Below are positions 4,428-12,996 of a stretch of 12,996 nucleotides of DNA, piece by piece. Each line of letters opens with the position of its first letter. Position 1 is the first letter of the stretch. A program made the translations under genes and the position numbers. The DNA comes from Candidatus Aenigmatarchaeota archaeon (GTDB lineage: Archaea; Aenigmatarchaeota; Aenigmatarchaeia; QMZP01). Where the stretch lies: assembly GCA_039091855.1 (NCBI GenBank), contig JAWCLA010000020.1, forward strand, positions 1 through 12,996. Reading direction: 5' to 3'. Below the pieces are notes generated by a model. It saw nothing but the letters and a program-made list of their open reading frames with translations. It made no database searches and had not been told where the DNA came from.

Positions 4428-5354
4428 ATGTCAAAATTAATCCCAATGCAGGAAATAACAAAGAGGGACTATTTAGAATTTATCAAAAACCATAATTCAG
4501 TTACAATCGAAGACGCAGTTTTGAATGTTGGTAAAAACTGGAAAATAAAATCCCTTCACCCCCAGGATTTTGAAATGGAAACCACTACAATTTGGAGTTT
4601 TCCAAAGAGGGGTGATTGGGCAACACACTACCTGAATGCTAAATACAGAGGAAACTGGGCTCCACAAGTTGCAAGAAACCTTATTTTGAGATATTCAAAA
4701 GACGGTGACACGGTTTTGGATCCTTTTGTGGGATCAGGAACCACTCTTATTGAATGCAAAATAACAGGCAGGAAGGGAATAGGAATTGACATAAATAAGG
4801 AAGCCCTTATAGTGACTTTGGACAGATTAAATATGCCATCACTTGACAAAAAAATGCTAGATAATTGTCAAAAGGTTTTCTTGGGCGATGCAAGAAATCT
4901 TAACGAAATTGGTAATGAAAGCATTGATTTTATTGCTACGCACCCGCCGTATGCAAGCATTATATCTTATACAAAAAACTCAAACCACAAGGAGGAAGGT
5001 GATCTTTCAAAGGTTCGCTCCATAGACGAGTTTGTAAAAGAGATGAAAAAGGTTGCTATTGAGTTATGGCGGGTATTAAAACCAGGAAAGTATTGTGCAA
5101 TTTTGATAGGTGATACGAGACGACACAAACACCAAGTTCCAATATCTTTCAGGGTTATGCAAACATTTCTTGATGTCGGTTTTGTTCTAAAAGAAAACAT
5201 AATCAAGGTACAACACAACACAAAAACTGCTCCGCTTTGGAAAAAAATGTCCTTAAAAAACAACTTTCTGCTTCTTGCGCATGAGCATTTATTCGTTTTC
5301 AGAAAGCCGGAAAAAGGAGAAAAGACGAAAATTTTTAGGGAAAGCATGAAGTGA
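4428..5354 (+). CDS. SAM-dependent amino-methyltransferase (N6A/N4C DNA methylase-like, TRM11-related fold)
   Basis: Motif I VLDPFVGSGTT, GIGIDIN, GDARNL, catalytic motif IV ATHPPY, RVLKPGKY, C-terminal HEHLFVFRKP. Confidence 0.88.
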   Translation: MSKLIPMQEITKRDYLEFIKNHNSVTIEDAVLNVGKNWKIKSLHPQDFEMETTTIWSFPKRGDWATHYLNAKYRGNWAPQVARNLILRYSKDGDTVLDPFVGSGTTLIECKITGRKGIGIDINKEALIVTLDRLNMPSLDKKMLDNCQKVFLGDARNLNEIGNESIDFIATHPPYASIISYTKNSNHKEEGDLSKVRSIDEFVKEMKKVAIELWRVLKPGKYCAILIGDTRRHKHQVPISFRVMQTFLDVGFVLKENIIKVQHNTKTAPLWKKMSLKNNFLLLAHEHLFVFRKPEKGEKTKIFRESMK

Positions 5355-5683: not shown

Positions 5684-7495
5684 TTACCCTTTCCCGTAAA
5701 TCTTCAGCCGTCCTGAAGATATTGCCTGCAACACAGTTTTACCGAGGGAGGACTTCTTTTTAACCCTTATCCTTCCCTTTTTTCCCACTATTGCGGAGAA
5801 TATAAAATCATTCCCGCTGTAAACGTCAACCTGCTCGCCTGTCAGGGAGGAATTAACCTTAAGGTCAAAGTGGTTCCCTGTCTCCTCAAAGCCGAAGGGT
5901 ATGGACTGCTTAAGGGTTTTTTCCTTAGGCTCGACAGAGATGTGAAGCCCCAGCTTCTTTTCAAGGGACTCTATGTTTTTGCCCTTTTTTCCTATAAGCT
6001 TTGATATTACCTCGTTTTTTACCCTCACAACTACCCTGTCCTCAGACTCAAACTCAACCTCAGGGTTTGAATCCCAGTTCCTGAGCTCCTGAAGTATCCT
6101 CGCCTTTGCCAGGTCTTTTAGTGGCGATTTTTCGTGCTGCTTCGTGACAGGGATTATGACATTTTCCTCTCCGTAGGTGTAAATCTCGTATTCGAGCCTC
6201 TTTGTCTCGTAATCCCTGACCTCGACAACAGGCCTTGCCAAGTCCGCTTCCTTCATGCCTGTCGGGACTTTTACCTTCATCCCTATCTCGAATGTCTTTA
6301 GGATTTTTCCTCCCGAGATGTAAATCACCGTGTCTATCACGTGGGGAATTGTCCCCAGCTCGAGCCTGCCTATGAACCTTTGTATAGCGCTGACAGGGTT
6401 GGTTGCGTGGACAACCCCTATCATACCTACGCCCGCAAGCCTCATGTCAGCAAAAACCTTGAAGTCCTTTGTCCTCCTGACCTCATCAAATATTGTGTAA
6501 TCAGGCCTAACGAGAAGGAGTATCTCTGCTGTTTTCTCCCAGTCCCCCTCAAGCGGTGCGTACTGCGTAACCTCCGGCCCAACCTGAAGGTCCCTTGGCT
6601 GCTCAAAGGTTTTCACAACCTTTCCCTTTGCCGAAAGGAAGTCGGCAATGGAGGCGGCAAATGTTGACTTTCCTGAGCCTGGCGGTCCTGCTATGAGAAT
6701 CCCGTACGAGCCTTTGAGGATTTTTTCCTCAAGCTCCTTGTGCAAATTGTAGTCAGAAAGCGTGAGCTTTGCAACGGGCCTTACCGCCGTGAGCTCAAGC
6801 CTGTCTGAAAAAGGAGGCCTTGTTATAGCTATCCTGTAGTTTCCGAGCTGTATGACCATTGCCCCGTGCTTTCCCATTTCTATGAAGCCGTCCTCATCAA
6901 CCCTTACCTTTGACTCTATCTGTTCTATTATCTTCTTCAGTTCTGACTCTTCCATTGGGGTTTCGCTGAGGAAGTGCATCCTTACTTCCCCTGGTTTTCC
7001 CTTTTTGGCATAAGGTATAACTCCTGCCTTTAAATGGATAGATTGCGTGTCAGGGGTGAAGAATTTCTCAATAATCAGCTTCTCCTTACTTACATCATAC
7101 TTCACGTGCTCTATCGGGACTCCCTCCGCCTCGCCAACAAGCGCCTGAACGTAATCGGCAGTAACAAGTGTTGCATTGTGCTTTGCGGCAACATCCCTTA
7201 TTATGGCGTCTATCCTTCCCTTCTTTGCAAGCTGTATCTCCTCAAGCGTGGGCCTTTTTCCCGTGAACTCAACCTTTACGTTGTGCTCCTTTCCTGCCTC
7301 TCTTATCTTCTTTATTTCTTCCAGTCCCTGGAATCCTATCTCCTTCCCCCTTGATGCCTGGGCCTGCAGCTCATCCACCACAGCCCTTGGTATCAGTATA
7401 GTGACGTTTTTTATCTTTCCTGACTTTATTAGGGCAGAAAGCTCCCCGTGTATCAGTATGCTCGTGTCAGGAACGAGTGTTTTTGACTTTTCCAT
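5684..7495 (-). CDS. PINA-type PIN-domain / P-loop ATPase / KH-domain protein (archaeal Holliday-junction branch-migration ATPase family)
   Basis: N-terminal PIN domain (VPDTS, ELQAQA, IDAIIRD, LVTAD), Walker A GPPGSGKST, LLVRPDYTIFDEVR, DMRLAGVGMIGVVHA, C-terminal KH loop LIGKKG. Confidence 0.93.
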   Translation of the reverse strand: MEKSKTLVPDTSILIHGELSALIKSGKIKNVTILIPRAVVDELQAQASRGKEIGFQGLEEIKKIREAGKEHNVKVEFTGKRPTLEEIQLAKKGRIDAIIRDVAAKHNATLVTADYVQALVGEAEGVPIEHVKYDVSKEKLIIEKFFTPDTQSIHLKAGVIPYAKKGKPGEVRMHFLSETPMEESELKKIIEQIESKVRVDEDGFIEMGKHGAMVIQLGNYRIAITRPPFSDRLELTAVRPVAKLTLSDYNLHKELEEKILKGSYGILIAGPPGSGKSTFAASIADFLSAKGKVVKTFEQPRDLQVGPEVTQYAPLEGDWEKTAEILLLVRPDYTIFDEVRRTKDFKVFADMRLAGVGMIGVVHATNPVSAIQRFIGRLELGTIPHVIDTVIYISGGKILKTFEIGMKVKVPTGMKEADLARPVVEVRDYETKRLEYEIYTYGEENVIIPVTKQHEKSPLKDLAKARILQELRNWDSNPEVEFESEDRVVVRVKNEVISKLIGKKGKNIESLEKKLGLHISVEPKEKTLKQSIPFGFEETGNHFDLKVNSSLTGEQVDVYSGNDFIFSAIVGKKGRIRVKKKSSLGKTVLQAISSGRLKIYGKG

Positions 7496-7751
7496 AATTT
7501 TCTCCTTATTTGCAATATCTTCACTGAACGTGAGATATATTAAATTTTTTCAATAGATGACCCACATCACTAAAACAATAAGCTGCTAATGATATGGGCA
7601 ACTCATCATTCAATTAGAACTAGTTTGCTGGCTCAAACTTTGTTCCTTTATGAATTGTTTTATAACTATTTAAATACTTTATCGTTATATTTATAAGTCC
7701 CTTTTTAAAGCTTTGGGTTATCTTTATAAGGGAAAGGCGCTTGCCTTTTCG

Positions 7752-7760
7752 AAAGGAGGT
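7752..7760 (+). promoter_or_regulatory. Shine-Dalgarno site of tbp
   Basis: AAAGGAGGT, 6 nt before ATG 7767. Confidence 0.8.
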
Positions 7761-7766
7761 TTGAAT

Positions 7767-8333
7767 ATGCCTGCGGAATTTCAGGTTAAAGTTGAGAATG
7801 TGGTTGCTTTTACTTCGCTGGGAAAGGACATACCTTTGAACAAGCTCATAAACAAGATAGAAAACGCTGAATACGAGCCCGAGCAGTTTCCCGGGCTTGT
7901 TTACAGGACAAACGATCCAAGGGCTGCTGCCCTCATATTCTCATCAGGGAAGATAGTGTGCACAGGTGCAAAAAGCATAGACATGGCGAAGGTTGCAATG
8001 AAAAAGGTCGTTGACAGGGTCAGGCAAACAGGTATAAACCTTCCCACCAAGTTCAACGTTCAGGTGGAAAACATAGTCGCTTCGTCAAAAATCAAGGCAA
8101 ACCTCAACCTTGAGGAGATAGCCTTTTCGCTTGAGAATGCAGAATACGAGCCCGAGCAGTTTCCCGGGCTTGTTTACAGGATAAACGACCCGAGAGTCGC
8201 TTTCCTGCTTTTCAGCTCCGGGAAGATAATATGCACAGGAGCGCACAACATCGATGACATACACAGCGCGCTCAACAAGCTGAAGAAGAGATTGGAGGAA
8301 ATAGGGATAAAGGTCACACCATTGAAGGACTAA
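7767..8333 (+). CDS. tbp: TATA-box-binding protein
   Basis: Two TBP repeats (ENVVA/ENIVA...YEPEQFPGLVYR..DPR...L.FSSGKI.CTGA). Start moved from TTG 7713 to ATG 7767 because of the SD site. Confidence 0.98.
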   Translation: MPAEFQVKVENVVAFTSLGKDIPLNKLINKIENAEYEPEQFPGLVYRTNDPRAAALIFSSGKIVCTGAKSIDMAKVAMKKVVDRVRQTGINLPTKFNVQVENIVASSKIKANLNLEEIAFSLENAEYEPEQFPGLVYRINDPRVAFLLFSSGKIICTGAHNIDDIHSALNKLKKRLEEIGIKVTPLKD

Positions 8334-8922: not shown

Positions 8923-9105
8923 GAATTGTCACAAGGCGAAGGTTAAGTGGAAGTTCCGAAGGAACTTCTCCGTCAAGTCGGAAAGGTAAACAATAATAAT
9001 GTGAATTGTCACAAGGCGAAGGTTAAGTGGAAGTTCCGAAGGAACTTCTCCGTCAAGTCGGAAAGGTAAACAATAATAATGTGAATTGTCACAAGGCGAA
9101 GGTTA
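8923..9105. repeat. Exact tandem repeat: two 80-bp units plus a 23-bp partial third unit
   Basis: Units start at 8923, 9003 and 9083 (GAATTGTCACAAGGCGAAGGTTA...). The units are identical, each full unit contains the hairpin GAAGTTCC-GAA-GGAACTTC, and the last base is the A of the rps8e ATG. Confidence 0.97.
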
Positions 9106-9503
9106 TGGTAAGATGGCACTTACGCTCGAACAGGACACCTACCGGGGCATTGGTAAAGAGGAGCAGCAAGAAAAAAAGGTTTCAAAGAGGCTCTGAGTTT
9201 CTGGAGACTAAAATAGGCAAAAAAAGGACAAAAACAAAGCGATGTAGGGGTGGAAACCAAAAAACCAAGCTTCTTTCTATTGATTTTGCAAATGTTGCTG
9301 ACCCAAAGACAGGAAGAATGCAAAAGGCAAAGATAATCTCTGTCCAGGAAAATCCTGCAAACCCGCACTACATAAGAAGGAACATCATAACAAAGGGCGC
9401 TGTGATTAAAACTGATATGGGTCTGGCAAAGGTTACATCAAGGCCAGGACAGCACGGGACTGTTAATGCAGTTCTTATAGAAGAAAAGAAAGCCTCAAAG
9501 TGA
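9105..9503 (+). CDS. rps8e: 30S ribosomal protein S8e
   Basis: RS.R.PTG, R.RGGN.K.KL, ANV.DP.TG, ENPANPHY.RRNIITKGAVI.T..G.A.VTSRPGQ.G.VNAVL. The true start is ATG 9105; the longer ORF is read-through of the repeat. Confidence 0.97.
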   Translation: MVRWHLRSNRTPTGALVKRSSKKKRFQRGSEFLETKIGKKRTKTKRCRGGNQKTKLLSIDFANVADPKTGRMQKAKIISVQENPANPHYIRRNIITKGAVIKTDMGLAKVTSRPGQHGTVNAVLIEEKKASK

Positions 9504-10843: not shown

Positions 10844-11653
10844 CTAAAGCAGATTTGCAAGTTTCTTTATGTCTTTATTTGCGACGTGAGTGTAGATCTG
10901 CGTAGTCTTCAAATCTTTATGGCCTAATAACTGCTGAATGTATCGAATATCAGCACCAGATTCTAATAGATGGGTCGCAAAGCTGTGCCTTAGCGTATGT
11001 GGTGTCACATTCTTTTTGATTCCTGCTTTATTATGAGCGGATTTTACGATTTGCTGAATTGTCCGCTTGTTGTATTTTCTCTCTCTTTGAGAAATAAATA
11101 TTGAACCTTTTTCCTTAGTTCCGAAAATCCTCAAAGTTTCTATTAATCTTTTATGAAGAAATACGACCCTTTCTTTATCTCCTTTCGCCGTTTTTAGATG
11201 TATTATCTCTCTGTCAAAATCAATGTCGTCCCATTTAAGATTTCTTACTTCATCCAGACGAAGCCCTGCATAATAAAGAAACATAATAACAAGCTTGTGC
11301 TTCAAATTGTTTGTAGCTTCTATCATCTTGTTTATTTCTTCTTTGCTCAAAACTAAAGGCAGTTTCAACGACTTTCTCGCGAGGGGAAGTTTTTCCTCAA
11401 ATCGTGTATTTAGTACGTTTTCATAAAAGAACTTCAGAGCAAAGTATGCAGACCTCATTGTTGATTTGCTTTTAGTTGTGTAGGATAACAGAAATTCTCT
11501 TGGTGTTTTGCCTGAAGACAGAAATTCTTTAACTATGAAAATATATGATTTGCCTGTTTGATAGGAATATCTTCTGAGTTTTATTTCCTCAATCAGCTTG
11601 CCAATAAGTTTATACTTTTCTTCTGGAGAATAGATTTTACTATTATCTGCCAT
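10844..11653 (-). CDS. Tyrosine recombinase, integron-integrase/Xer-like but without the IntI-specific insertion
   Basis: Intact catalytic set: GLR (R), KG.K (K), HTLRH (H-x-x-R), LLGH (H), IYTH (Y). The N-terminal LRRYSYQT..SY and KLPLVLS resemble integron integrases. Only 269 aa. Confidence 0.93.
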   Translation of the reverse strand: MADNSKIYSPEEKYKLIGKLIEEIKLRRYSYQTGKSYIFIVKEFLSSGKTPREFLLSYTTKSKSTMRSAYFALKFFYENVLNTRFEEKLPLARKSLKLPLVLSKEEINKMIEATNNLKHKLVIMFLYYAGLRLDEVRNLKWDDIDFDREIIHLKTAKGDKERVVFLHKRLIETLRIFGTKEKGSIFISQRERKYNKRTIQQIVKSAHNKAGIKKNVTPHTLRHSFATHLLESGADIRYIQQLLGHKDLKTTQIYTHVANKDIKKLANLL

Positions 11654-11683
11654 ACATTTTATTATGGAAACTAACTTTATAAA

Positions 11684-11750
11684 ATCTCGCTTTTTATACT
11701 CATATATACTATAAAACGAATATTTATCTCGCTTAATAGTTGTTCAACGC
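11684..11750 (+). other. Putative attI-like primary recombination site with crossover G|TT at 11742/11743
   Basis: Lies just upstream of the divergent recombinase. GTTCAAC core at 11742-11748; direct repeats ATCTCGCTT at 11684-11692 and 11726-11734. Confidence 0.55.
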
Positions 11751-11774
11751 AATGCTCACTACGGGGCTCCAAAA

Positions 11775-11788
11775 GAAAAATTTAAATA
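11775..11788 (+). promoter_or_regulatory. BRE/TATA promoter of the HNH gene (probably leaderless)
   Basis: GAAAAA-TTTAAATA ending 23 nt before ATG 11812. Confidence 0.6.
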
Positions 11789-11811
11789 CAAACTAGTAAT
11801 AATGAATTATT

Positions 11812-12216
11812 ATGCCAAGAAATCCATTTGCGATTGATATAAAACCTGTTGATATTTGGGGAACTTCAAAAAAATCTAAAAAGAGGAAAAATATTTCTTT
11901 TACAGAAAAAGCAATTTTATGGGAAAAAAATAAATCACACATTTGTCATATCTGCAGACAGAAAATACATTCTTTAACTGAAGCAGAAGTTGACCATATA
12001 AGAGCACATTCTAAAGGTGGTCAGACTGTGAGTTGGGCACACCGTGCGTGTAATAGATTAAAAGGTAAAAAATCGCTTTCTGAAATTCATAGAAGATTAG
12101 GAATTAAAACTAAGTCTAAGAAAAGAAAATCTACTAGAAAGAAATCAAAAGGGAATTATTGGGTTAATCCTATAACAGGTAGAAAAGAAAAGGTCCAACC
12201 TTTATTTCGACTTTAA
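11812..12216 (+). CDS. HNH endonuclease with a basic C-terminal tail
   Basis: CHIC, EVDHI...SKGG and AHRACNRLKG; zinc-binding HNH pattern. Confidence 0.9.
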   Translation: MPRNPFAIDIKPVDIWGTSKKSKKRKNISFTEKAILWEKNKSHICHICRQKIHSLTEAEVDHIRAHSKGGQTVSWAHRACNRLKGKKSLSEIHRRLGIKTKSKKRKSTRKKSKGNYWVNPITGRKEKVQPLFRL

Positions 12217-12220
12217 ACAA

Positions 12221-12352
12221 CTAAAACTCGATTCGTGTCCTTCTTTTAGGTCTTCTTCTTGCTTTGAAACTAACTCTTTGACCACTACTTGTTCTAAAGG
12301 ACACAGGTCTCTTAGTTTTAGTTTTCTTTCTTCTTGCTAAAAACGATGGCAT
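12221..12352 (-). CDS. Small, highly basic 43-aa protein; absent from the ORF track
   Basis: Manual translation MPSFLARRKKTKTKRPVSFRTSSGQRVSFKARRRPKRRTRIEF (17 of 43 residues K/R, one acidic). It fills the gap between the HNH stop and the hairpin region and is preceded on the - strand by GCAAAA-TTTTTATA about 22 nt upstream. Confidence 0.65.
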   Translation of the reverse strand: MPSFLARRKKTKTKRPVSFRTSSGQRVSFKARRRPKRRTRIEF

Positions 12353-12457
12353 AATAATCAATAGAAACTTATTCTATAAAAATTTTGCGGAGCCCCTCCG
12401 TTCGCACTTCTTCGTCGCTTCGCTCCTCGACCACATTGCATTCTCACTTCGTTCGGG

Positions 12458-12547
12458 GCGTTGAACAGGCATTTTACGGCTCACTTCGTTGCACTCGTTC
12501 GCCAAAATTTCCCTGCGGGAAACTTCGTAAAATGCCATATGTTCATT
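12458..12547 (+). other. attC-like hairpin recombination site
   Basis: TGAACA (12462-12467) pairs with TGTTCA (12540-12545). GGCATTTTACG (12468-12478) pairs perfectly with CGTAAAATGCC (12526-12536), leaving a 3-nt ATA bulge. Inner hairpin TTTCCC-TGC-GGGAAA (12508-12522). The AAC...GTT triplets are conserved as in attC R''/R'. Confidence 0.7.
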
Positions 12548-12627
12548 TCAATCGCTCGGGCGCCTACGGTTCACGCTTCAAAATCAATTTAAACATTTGT
12601 TAAACATAAAATAAATTATCTGATTTA

Positions 12628-12996
12628 TTATGATTGTAGAATGCTTCTAAACTGAGATGAATTTTCCCATTCTGGAATTGTTATAAGATATCTACTAACA
12701 AAATGTTTTAATGCTTTTCTTCGGGTTCCAGCAGACGTTAATGTAGATTTCTCCCACAAATCTCTTCCAGAACTATCTTTTTCGATTAAGAAATCTTTAA
12801 GATTGGGAAATATTTTTTTGAAATTATCTTTTGTAAGTGGAAGATTCCTATATTCAAATTCTTTTTTGATATATGGTAATAATTCAATAAATATAGATAA
12901 CCCATAGTGACTTTTTATGAGAGAAGTTTTGTATTTTTTAGTTGGCCAAAGGTTACCAGAACATTCTTGAATTGCAGCTAAAAAATCATTAAGAAC
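12628..12996 (-). CDS. 3' part of a gene whose start is outside the window (cassette 2 cargo), possibly a DGQHR/DndB-like protein
   Basis: Open frame of 122 codons: VLNDFLAAIQECSGNLWPTKKYKTSLIKSHYGLSIFIELLPYI...RSILQS*. The 'N.F.AI....W....SLI...GL..FI.LL' pattern recalls DGQHR-domain C-termini. The ORF is solid; the family call is weak. Confidence 0.6.
   Translation of the reverse strand, partial: VLNDFLAAIQECSGNLWPTKKYKTSLIKSHYGLSIFIELLPYIKKEFEYRNLPLTKDNFKKIFPNLKDFLIEKDSSGRDLWEKSTLTSAGTRRKALKHFVSRYLITIPEWENSSQFRSILQS

Follow-up and report, generated by a model that had tools for sequence, protein, structure and literature searches.

The question raised by this locus is whether a short segment of archaeal DNA, bounded in the manner of an integron cassette, is a mobile cassette, and what kind of enzyme would move it. 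The segment, referred to here as cassette 1 (positions 11743-12541, plus strand, 799 bp), lies on contig JAWCLA010000020.1 of a Candidatus Aenigmatarchaeota archaeon, and the window analysed is that entire contig of 12,996 bp (genome of 689 kb in 38 contigs, 84% complete). It reaches from the TT following the last G of an attI-like docking region (11654-11742, plus strand) to the G of its own attC-like site. On the other side of the docking region a XerA-type tyrosine recombinase gene is present on the minus strand (10844-11653, 269 aa; Pfam Phage_integrase, 2.5e-45), its start 90 nt left of the crossover G11742|T11743. We consider it likely that 11743-12541 is a mobile cassette, the first in an integron-like platform which combines a XerA-type enzyme with an extended, branched attC. 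The anatomy of the platform, the conservation and covariation of its sites, the complementarity of the sites to the ends of their own cassettes and the variety of cassettes at one attI are direct observations. The element acts like an integron cassette, yet the recombinase beside it lacks the domain by which integron integrases are defined.

As integrated, the right-hand site of cassette 1 pairs over only 6 bp outside a bulge (12462-12467 with 12540-12545). Joining G12541 to T11743, as in a circular cassette, produces 10 perfect bp between 12458-12467 and 12540-12541 followed by 11743-11750; both statements had been made in an earlier sequence-only reading of the window and were confirmed here. 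The 10-bp helix adjoins a perfect 11-bp stem (12468-12478/12526-12536) and a 3-nt bulge (12537-12539). Since four of the ten pairs belong to the conserved TGTT/AACA, the informative part is the match of the hexamer. The R'' hexamer at 12458-12463 is complementary at 6/6 positions to the cassette's own start, CAACGC at 11745-11750, and at 3/6 to the next start at 12544-12549, while the chance level of a 6/6 match is 20 in 1056 non-own pairs of the family. Farther out, the 5' arm at 12389-12396 (GGAGCCCC, plus strand) is the exact complement of the 3' arm at 11763-11770. As had been proposed, the two form a helix, called here the outer stem, and it is present in the minimum-energy joined fold of both strands. 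A second proposed pairing, that of CATTGC (12434-12439) with GCAATG (11749-11754), is correct in its strings and coordinates, but it overlaps the 10-bp stem by 2 nt and is not used in the fold; in its place the top-strand joined fold pairs 12438-12442 with 11751-11755 (5 bp). A further 7-bp A/T helix (12380-12386 with 11777-11783) appears in the joined fold of both strands.

The predicted folding energy is -37.6 kcal/mol for the joined form against -29.8 kcal/mol for the integrated form on the top strand, and -40.1 against -34.1 kcal/mol on the bottom strand (gains of 7.8 and 6.0). The core alone folds at -29.4 kcal/mol on the bottom strand (z -3.08) with a top-strand z of -1.32, a strand difference which is not decisive. 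Ranked by duplex energy among 33 candidate partners of the 3' region, the window's own 5' end comes only 4th, and therefore the outer stem alone is only moderately distinctive in the window. Between the outer arm and R'' there is a GC-rich and CTTCG-rich spacer (12397-12457, plus strand), part of which (about 12425-12445) resembles by inspection the stretches upstream of the third site in one related genome (G058) and of the first site in another (G054).

The attC-like core of cassette 1 (12458-12541, plus strand) consists of R'' (12458-12467; hexamer plus AACA), L'' (12468-12478), an interior with CCAAAAT (12502-12508) and a hairpin (12508-12513/12517-12522), ACTTCG overlapping L' (12526-12536), the bulge ATA (12537-12539) and TG (12540-12541). 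This arrangement is shared by a family of sites whose common order is six variable bases and AACA, an 11-bp L stem, a first hairpin, CCAAAT, a second hairpin, ACTTCG running into L', a bulge of 2-4 nt, TG|TT, six variable bases and AAT. Compensatory changes are seen at 16 of the 23 pairs of the consensus fold of 13 seed sites, and a covariance model from these seeds finds three sites in the source genome, sites in 35 of the 61 genomes of the order and matches in 57 of the 151 sampled genomes of the phylum. The window site scores 80.7 bits (E 2.6e-13) with covariance model R1. A search of Rfam at E up to 1 placed no family, attC included, at the site and gave two far-below-threshold matches outside it. 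An alignment of 63 sites (A3) has 92.9% of its cells paired, compared with 69.8% in shuffles (0/500 as high) and 31-47% with slid partners, although this share is inflated by the fitting of A3 to the model structure. The AACA/TGTT pairs are kept in 47-59 of the 63 sites.

For the detailed comparison, 63 matches in the fetched loci of the related genomes were reduced to 61 by dropping two cut by locus ends; 52 of these could be parsed and nine had no GTT/AAC in place. The L stem carries no extrahelical bases: it is perfect over 11 bp in 26 of the 52 parsed sites and reaches at least 10/11 in 42 when G-T pairs are counted. A one-sided 2-4-nt bulge between L' and R' is present in 48/52, and AAT follows the hexamer in 41/52 (in cassette 1, AAT at 11751-11753 after the hexamer at 11745-11750); in the fold this AAT stays unpaired. 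The interior is conserved in part and not freely variable. Site lengths range from 86 to 146 nt, rising to about 190 nt in the circle when the outer stem is included. The R''-L''...L'-R' imperfect palindrome with AAC/GTT cores and a hairpin fold, as known from integrons, is present in this family. Canonical attC sites, in the relevant passages of PMC8946536, have an unpaired central spacer, extrahelical bases and a variable terminal structure, and undergo bottom-strand recombination followed by replicative resolution. The earlier proposal that the site of cassette 1 is longer and more branched than a canonical attC is supported by the conserved two-hairpin interior, the covariation and the cassette-private outer stem.

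Complementarity of R'' to the 5' end of its own cassette, a feature of integron cassettes, was found across the family. Among the 33 cassettes of the related genomes, defined as segments between consecutive sites at most 4 kb from each other, the R'' hexamer matches its own start at 6/6 positions in 19 and at 5/6 or better in 25, whereas against the next downstream start none of the 33 reaches 5/6. The own-end total was reached by none of 10,000 permutations. A metagenome set served as a replicate: from 54 model matches two cut by ends and three weak ones lying on attI were removed, leaving 49, of which five could not be parsed, and 40 non-duplicate cassettes resulted. Here 18/40 are perfect with their own start and 24/40 reach at least 5/6, compared with 0/40 and 1/40 for the next start, and again none of 10,000 permutations was as high.

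These results bear directly on one alternative, namely that the segment is not a cassette at all and the hairpin is a terminator or RNA element of an HNH gene with coincidentally matching ends, or that the segment is invertible in the manner of a shufflon. The hairpin does come after an open reading frame (ORF), which encodes a possible HNH endonuclease, and cassette ORFs in the family occur in both orientations (19 plus, 14 minus). The own-end rule in two data sets, with no permutation as good in either, the 43 hexamers joined to the same attI (see below) and the Rfam result at the site all stand against it. Nor did the contigs of four sequencing runs show any strand-changing (inversion) joint, and sites within arrays are direct, 54/54 on one strand. 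This explanation is already contradicted by the comparative data, and we give it hardly any weight.

The outer stem is clearly general across the family and private to each cassette. Bases 9-48 of every cassette were compared with the 90 nt upstream of its R''. With the own partner the longest perfect stem has a mean length of 9.4 bp, as against 5.9 bp with the ends of other cassettes; the own partner ranks first of 33 in 16 of the 33 cassettes, and none of 10,000 permutations was as good. Two cassettes with short flanks were left out of the folding comparison; of the remaining 31, 28 are predicted to gain stability on either strand when circular, the mean difference from the integrated form being 8.6-8.9 kcal/mol.

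In the window and in the nine loci of related genomes with a recombinase orthologue, the docking region itself keeps its sequence as far as GTT and varies from there on. In all of them the docking motif is situated a short way upstream of the gene start and its last bases are GTT, with one variant (G042), and beyond GTT only the AAT six bases later is retained. An attI beside the recombinase gene with insertion at G|TT is the arrangement known from integrons. In the window the region contains a TATA-like/TCGCTTT box (11675-11693) and an imperfect 11-bp inverted repeat (11709-11719 with 11729-11739; 9/11 pairs, 9-nt loop), followed by T, TG and the crossover after G11742. The exact 18-mer at 11727-11744 was found in at least 120 metagenome stretches, of which 80 loci (L097-L176) were analysed, 79 with enough sequence after GTT. 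After this one 18-nt motif 43 different hexamers occur, and AAT follows the hexamer in 58/79. In the metagenome copies the inverted repeat is perfect in many cases and the TCGCTTT box lies about 40 nt upstream. As a side observation, the attC model weakly matches the docking site itself in three of these loci (31 bits).

Docking site, recombinase gene and attC-like sites occur together. Of the eight orthologue loci whose flank reaches 0.7 kb or more, seven show an attC-like site within 1.2 kb; the same holds, within 4 kb, for 27 of the 38 metagenome loci in attI context with at least 1.5 kb downstream. Although the metagenome loci were chosen by the 18-mer alone, all 54 model matches in them lie downstream of the motif on the same strand. 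Where at least 900 nt are available upstream (48 loci), a full recombinase gene of 81-87% identity stands in the same divergent position in 20 and only N-terminal fragments remain in five. Each of the 13 related genomes in which the orthologue is present, in full or in part, has attC-like matches, compared with 21 of the 47 others. Since the recombinase is present in many but not all loci, the linkage is strong without being universal, as in bacterial arrays devoid of an integrase.

Integron integrases are defined by an extra domain which reads the flipped-out bases of attC and is held to be necessary for cassette recombination. The recombinase of the window does not contain this IntI-specific additional domain around patch III. 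Its best NCBIfam model is XerA_Arch, at 212 bits just below the cut-off of 220, and the integron integrase model TIGR02249 gives 196 bits in two separate stretches, below the cut-off of 265. Over its whole length it can be aligned with the solved structures of XerA from Thermoplasma (5hxy) and Pyrococcus (4a8e), with E-values of 1e-42 and 4e-40. In the alignment with VchIntIA of Vibrio (2a3v), residues 174-190 of the query, i.e. 16 residues, cover chain residues 177-238, i.e. 61, and therefore about 45 residues are missing from the recombinase; from the known structure of IntIA we take this gap to lie at the IntI additional domain. The catalytic set is complete (R132, K157/K160, H219, R222, H245 and Y254). 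The missing domain and the missing extrahelical bases of the sites go together.

Orthologues of 60-86% identity were found in nine of 60 related genomes, with fragments in four more, and many of them lie at contig ends on the gene-start side. Close orthologues, with as much as 86% identity, are found in other families of the order, and genomes of the same genus have only distant matches (36-45%). This distribution suggests that the platform itself moves horizontally or is often lost. The window recombinase is the only full-length XerA-family gene found in its genome, which is 84% complete. Two further observations on the enzyme family may be recorded. In related genomes of the order there are many ORFs of about 190-200 aa, often in tandem pairs, which match only the catalytic half of the XerA model (profile positions of about 88-263). 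There is also a second clade of recombinases (43-45% identity) which exceeds the XerA_Arch cut-off (G019:C68, G003:C28 and G004:C31; L013-L015). Its docking site differs, with a short hairpin followed by GAGCATG|TT, and its cassettes have the same hexamer-AAT starts and the same grammar; in G003 an attC-like site 855 nt downstream of the docking site matches its own start at 6/6.

An ordinary integron has to be considered at this point, with standard attC cassettes (a cluster of attC sites lacking integron integrases, CALIN) served in trans by a canonical IntI that is encoded elsewhere or was not assembled, and with the XerA-like gene as a bystander. In passages of Ghaly 2022 (PMC9668308), integrons are reported from 75 archaeal genomes, with six IntIs that carry the IntI-specific domain; most are attC clusters without an integrase, Aenigmatarchaeota are named among the phyla, and the bacterial IntI1 recombines archaeal attCs. 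The attI-like loci of the metagenome set without a recombinase gene (about 16) would also fit such an arrangement. No canonical integron integrase was found above the TIGR02249 cut-off in any of the 61 related genomes, however, and all matches skip the IntI-specific part (profile positions of about 180-236). The docking site is conserved directly beside the XerA-type gene, attC-like matches accompany the orthologue in 13/13 genomes against 21/47, and the L stems have none of the extrahelical bases read by the IntI domain (26/52 being perfect over 11 bp). We therefore regard a canonical integrase acting in trans as quite improbable.

On the reading that we prefer, a mobile cassette on an integron-like platform with a XerA-type enzyme, the platform would consist of the XerA-type recombinase gene, the conserved docking site and cassettes that each end in a folded attC-like site. 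By analogy with integrons, the recombinase would join the G|TT of the upstream boundary to the G|TT of the cassette's own site and so release a circle. The site in the circle is predicted to fold into a 10-bp R stem (own hexamer and TGTT against R''), an 11-bp L stem, the two-hairpin interior, the bulge and the outer stem, and recombination of the folded site with attI would place the newest cassette beside the recombinase gene. The same analogy suggests that the neighbouring XerA-type enzyme performs the reaction, that it acts on single-stranded DNA in folded form and that the outer stem may aid folding or bring the two crossover points together.

Classical double-strand Xer recombination offers a different account of the same anatomy. 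A dif site, at which Xer enzymes (XerA in Archaea) resolve chromosome dimers, is a single duplex of two 11-bp arms and a 6-bp spacer; in this account attI is a dif-like site beside xerA, the cassettes are dif-exploiting modules comparable to integrative mobile elements exploiting Xer (IMEX) or to pdif/xrs modules, they enter in duplex form through two staggered exchanges of strands, and the hairpins have some other use. The recombinase is indeed closest to the XerA family, and the conserved AAT six bases past GTT could mark a second cleavage point. In addition, four cassettes that break the own-end rule have the same hexamer on both sides (the third of G015, those of L171 and L151, and the second of L105). 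A pure single-strand exchange at G|TT does not predict this pattern, although L105 may be a tandem duplication. On that metagenome contig a pair of attC-like sites, equal in score and separated by 1247 nt, are each followed by the same hexamer, which has the look of a cassette duplicated in tandem. Passages of Cortez 2010 (PMC2958812) place predicted dif sites close to xerA in Sulfolobales, a likeness to our platform, which likewise has a single XerA-type recombinase near its docking site. Passages of PMC11705084 describe adaptive genes bracketed by Xer-type sites in pdif/xrs modules of Acinetobacter plasmids, which are alike in this respect, and report that xrs cassettes could not be excised when tested in A. 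baumannii.

Inspection of the junctions by eye, with no formal search of the genome for dif, revealed no single duplex site with two 11-bp arms and a 6-bp spacer. Unlike such a site, the sites of the window family are folded palindromes of 86-146 nt with covarying stems, arranged in direct arrays downstream of one docking site. The L stems covary instead of keeping one sequence, which points to recognition of structure and not of duplex sequence. The partner hexamers differ (43 at one attI), and classical second-strand exchange is normally intolerant of such differences. A cut after the hexamer moreover predicts that R'' matches the next start, which occurs at 6/6 in 0 of 73 cassettes. Because of the rule failures, the same hexamer on both sides and the unpaired AAT, a staggered two-strand Xer mechanism stays a minority rival, which we rate as unlikely while giving it more weight than the other alternatives.

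Several points weigh against the integron-like platform preferred here. The own-end rule fails (below 5/6) in 8 of the 33 and in 16 of the 40 cassettes, and the failures include relatives which share the 5' module downstream of cassette 1, namely G015 (3/6) and L171 (1/6), in both of which the same hexamer and module stand on both sides of the non-matching cassette. Some failures may arise from missed or degenerate intermediate sites, given that 9/61 and 5/49 sites could not be parsed. The related genomes are not independent samples, the control set for TIGR02249 contained no positive genome (0/14 matched), and the pairing share of A3 is inflated as noted above. Of the 48 metagenome loci with enough upstream sequence, 23 have no recombinase beside the motif. 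About seven of these are without any attI context and look like chance matches, and about 16 attI-like sites without a recombinase gene remain (e.g. L099, L103, L104, L108, L119, L130 and L155), which suggests that the gene is frequently lost or decayed at such loci. We know of no experiment in which a XerA-type enzyme processes hairpin DNA. Finally, neither a circle junction nor a true empty site was found in the contigs of four of the metagenome runs, all 12 runs being kept as assembled contigs, in which rare forms drop out and such junctions are invisible.

The 12 sequencing runs that contain window sequence are labelled as hot-spring and groundwater metagenomes. Contigs from two of them (X3 and, from another study, X5) follow the window to 11744 and then continue with other hexamer-AAT starts, and an X5 contig likewise leaves the window after 12543. 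In a third run (X2) the HNH cassette, with 23 differences, is found behind different upstream DNA. In X1 the summed contig depth falls from 45 at the attI bin to 3.6-4 within the cassette; this sums all contigs and is a hint of heterogeneity only. Integration of the segment as a circle at G|TT, as suggested earlier, has comparative and not direct support: the own-end rule in two data sets, the 43 hexamers and the divergence of contigs at G|TT. The circle and empty-site junctions that the sequence-only reading had proposed to look for did not appear in the contigs of four runs, again assembled contigs from which rare forms are lost. Apart from a skip of 99 nt (11605-11705) in an X5 contig, these showed just one further joint, in an X2 record of 275 nt with pieces of 18 and 21 nt, and the latter was taken as spurious. 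One metagenome locus (L171) was tried as an empty site as it joins attI to the window's next start, and rejected: only 43 nt are common (88% identity) and the rest is a different cassette.

In comparison with integrons, the platform is alike in having a recombinase gene beside the docking site, crossover at G|TT, short and mostly one-ORF cassettes, imperfect palindromes with AAC...GTT cores and R''/L''/L'/R' boxes in which R'' matches the start of its own cassette, sites that resemble one another more in structure than in sequence, and many arrays without a recombinase gene. It differs in its XerA-like recombinase without the IntI-specific domain. It differs further in an uninterrupted 11-bp L stem without extrahelical bases, whose sole asymmetry is the one-sided 2-4-nt bulge, in an interior of two hairpins with conserved CCAAAT and ACTTCG, and in the AAT after the hexamer. 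The cassette-private outer stem, which extends the site to about 190 nt in the circle, the cassettes facing both ways, many with a TATA-like box, and an attI with an 11-bp inverted repeat set it apart as well. The chromosomal attC repeats of V. cholerae form sedentary arrays and are similar in being long (>100 nt) with extended stems. Unlike the window family, they carry extrahelical bases and are recombined by IntIA, an integrase with the extra domain, and to our knowledge no cassette-private outer stem has been described for them.

We found no description in the literature of cassette arrays run by a XerA-type enzyme, although the supplementary lists of Ghaly 2022 may include such sites. In a 2021 review of archaeal tyrosine recombinases integrons appear in lists only, and the words 'cassette', 'hairpin' and 'DPANN' never. 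What makes the system worth attention is that the cassette logic of integrons (docking, G|TT, own-end complementarity and structure-conserved sites) is kept beside a recombinase without the IntI domain, and that it is widespread, as seen from the 57/151 sampled genomes of the phylum and the at least 120 metagenome stretches with the docking 18-mer. A broader reading, to which we give slightly less than an even chance, is that a whole archaeal phylum possesses an integron analogue built on a plain XerA-type recombinase. It would represent either an ancestral-like stage in the evolution of integrons from Xer/dif or an independent invention. The perfect L stem, the one-sided bulge and the outer stems would replace the IntI extra domain and the extrahelical bases, and in single-stranded DNA the outer stems would pair the ends of the integrated cassette and so pre-assemble an excision synapse in cis. 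If the XerA-type enzyme is the catalyst, it becomes possible to test directly how integrons arose from Xer-type recombinases, archaeal cassette platforms are undercounted by surveys that insist on the IntI domain, and a small recombinase acting on folded DNA sites is open to study.

The cassettes of the family have a median length of 799 bp and mostly contain one ORF, the longest lying on the array strand in 19 of the 33 and on the opposite strand in 14. Among the 33 cassettes the motif TTTAWA peaks 20-40 nt after G|TT (10 in this 20-nt bin, no more than three in any other). The promoterless, co-oriented cassettes read from a platform promoter that characterise integrons are thus not what is found, and the sequences suggest that the cassettes carry promoters of their own. 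In cassette 1 a TATA-like TTTAAA (11781-11786, plus strand) is read 26 nt upstream of the ORF start and is presumably the cassette's own promoter. The ORF (11812-12216, plus strand, 134 aa) has weak matches to HNH endonucleases (Pfam HNH 2.2e-4, 21.7 bits against a cut-off of 21.4; HNH_5 7.8e-5), and homologues of 33-45% identity are present in 3/60 related genomes.

Downstream of cassette 1 the next cassette start or array flank (12542-12996, plus strand) opens with TT, the hexamer CATTTC (12544-12549), AAT and a 5' module of about 40 nt. The module (window 12542-12580) recurs twice in G015 (L035) and, directly after attI, in L171, and the rest of the sequence of these cassettes is unrelated. 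The minus strand carries an orphan ORF (12628-12996) which is cut by the contig end and has no match in the 60 related genomes, Pfam or NCBIfam. The array could not be followed further within the genome, as the contig ends at 12996 and a site with the complement of the next start was not found. The check proposed in the sequence-only reading, that the next site should be complementary to this start, came out positive in the relative L165, which has another cassette with the same hexamer, and negative in G015 and L171. Loose matches to the motifs had drawn attention to two contig ends (C17 and C19), which proved unrelated, and a MAFFT alignment of the two junction regions was uninformative.

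The two other model matches in the genome are solo sites in ordinary gene contexts on the minus strand, C36:25983-26085 (58 bits), just upstream of the start of a 593-aa ORF, and C33:18329-18418 (47 bits); no own-start hexamer was found for them in the fetched stretches of 4.2 kb and 5.0 kb, respectively. The contig of the window carries the archaeal marker genes for the TATA-binding protein TBP (7713-8333), ribosomal protein S8e (9027-9503) and a CDC48-type ATPase, and therefore the platform lies on a piece of archaeal chromosome and not on a mis-binned bacterial contig. Farther upstream on the same contig are genes for an N6_N4_Mtase DNA methyltransferase (4428-5354) and a PIN-ATPase-KH protein (5684-7495), both apparently unconnected with the cassette platform.

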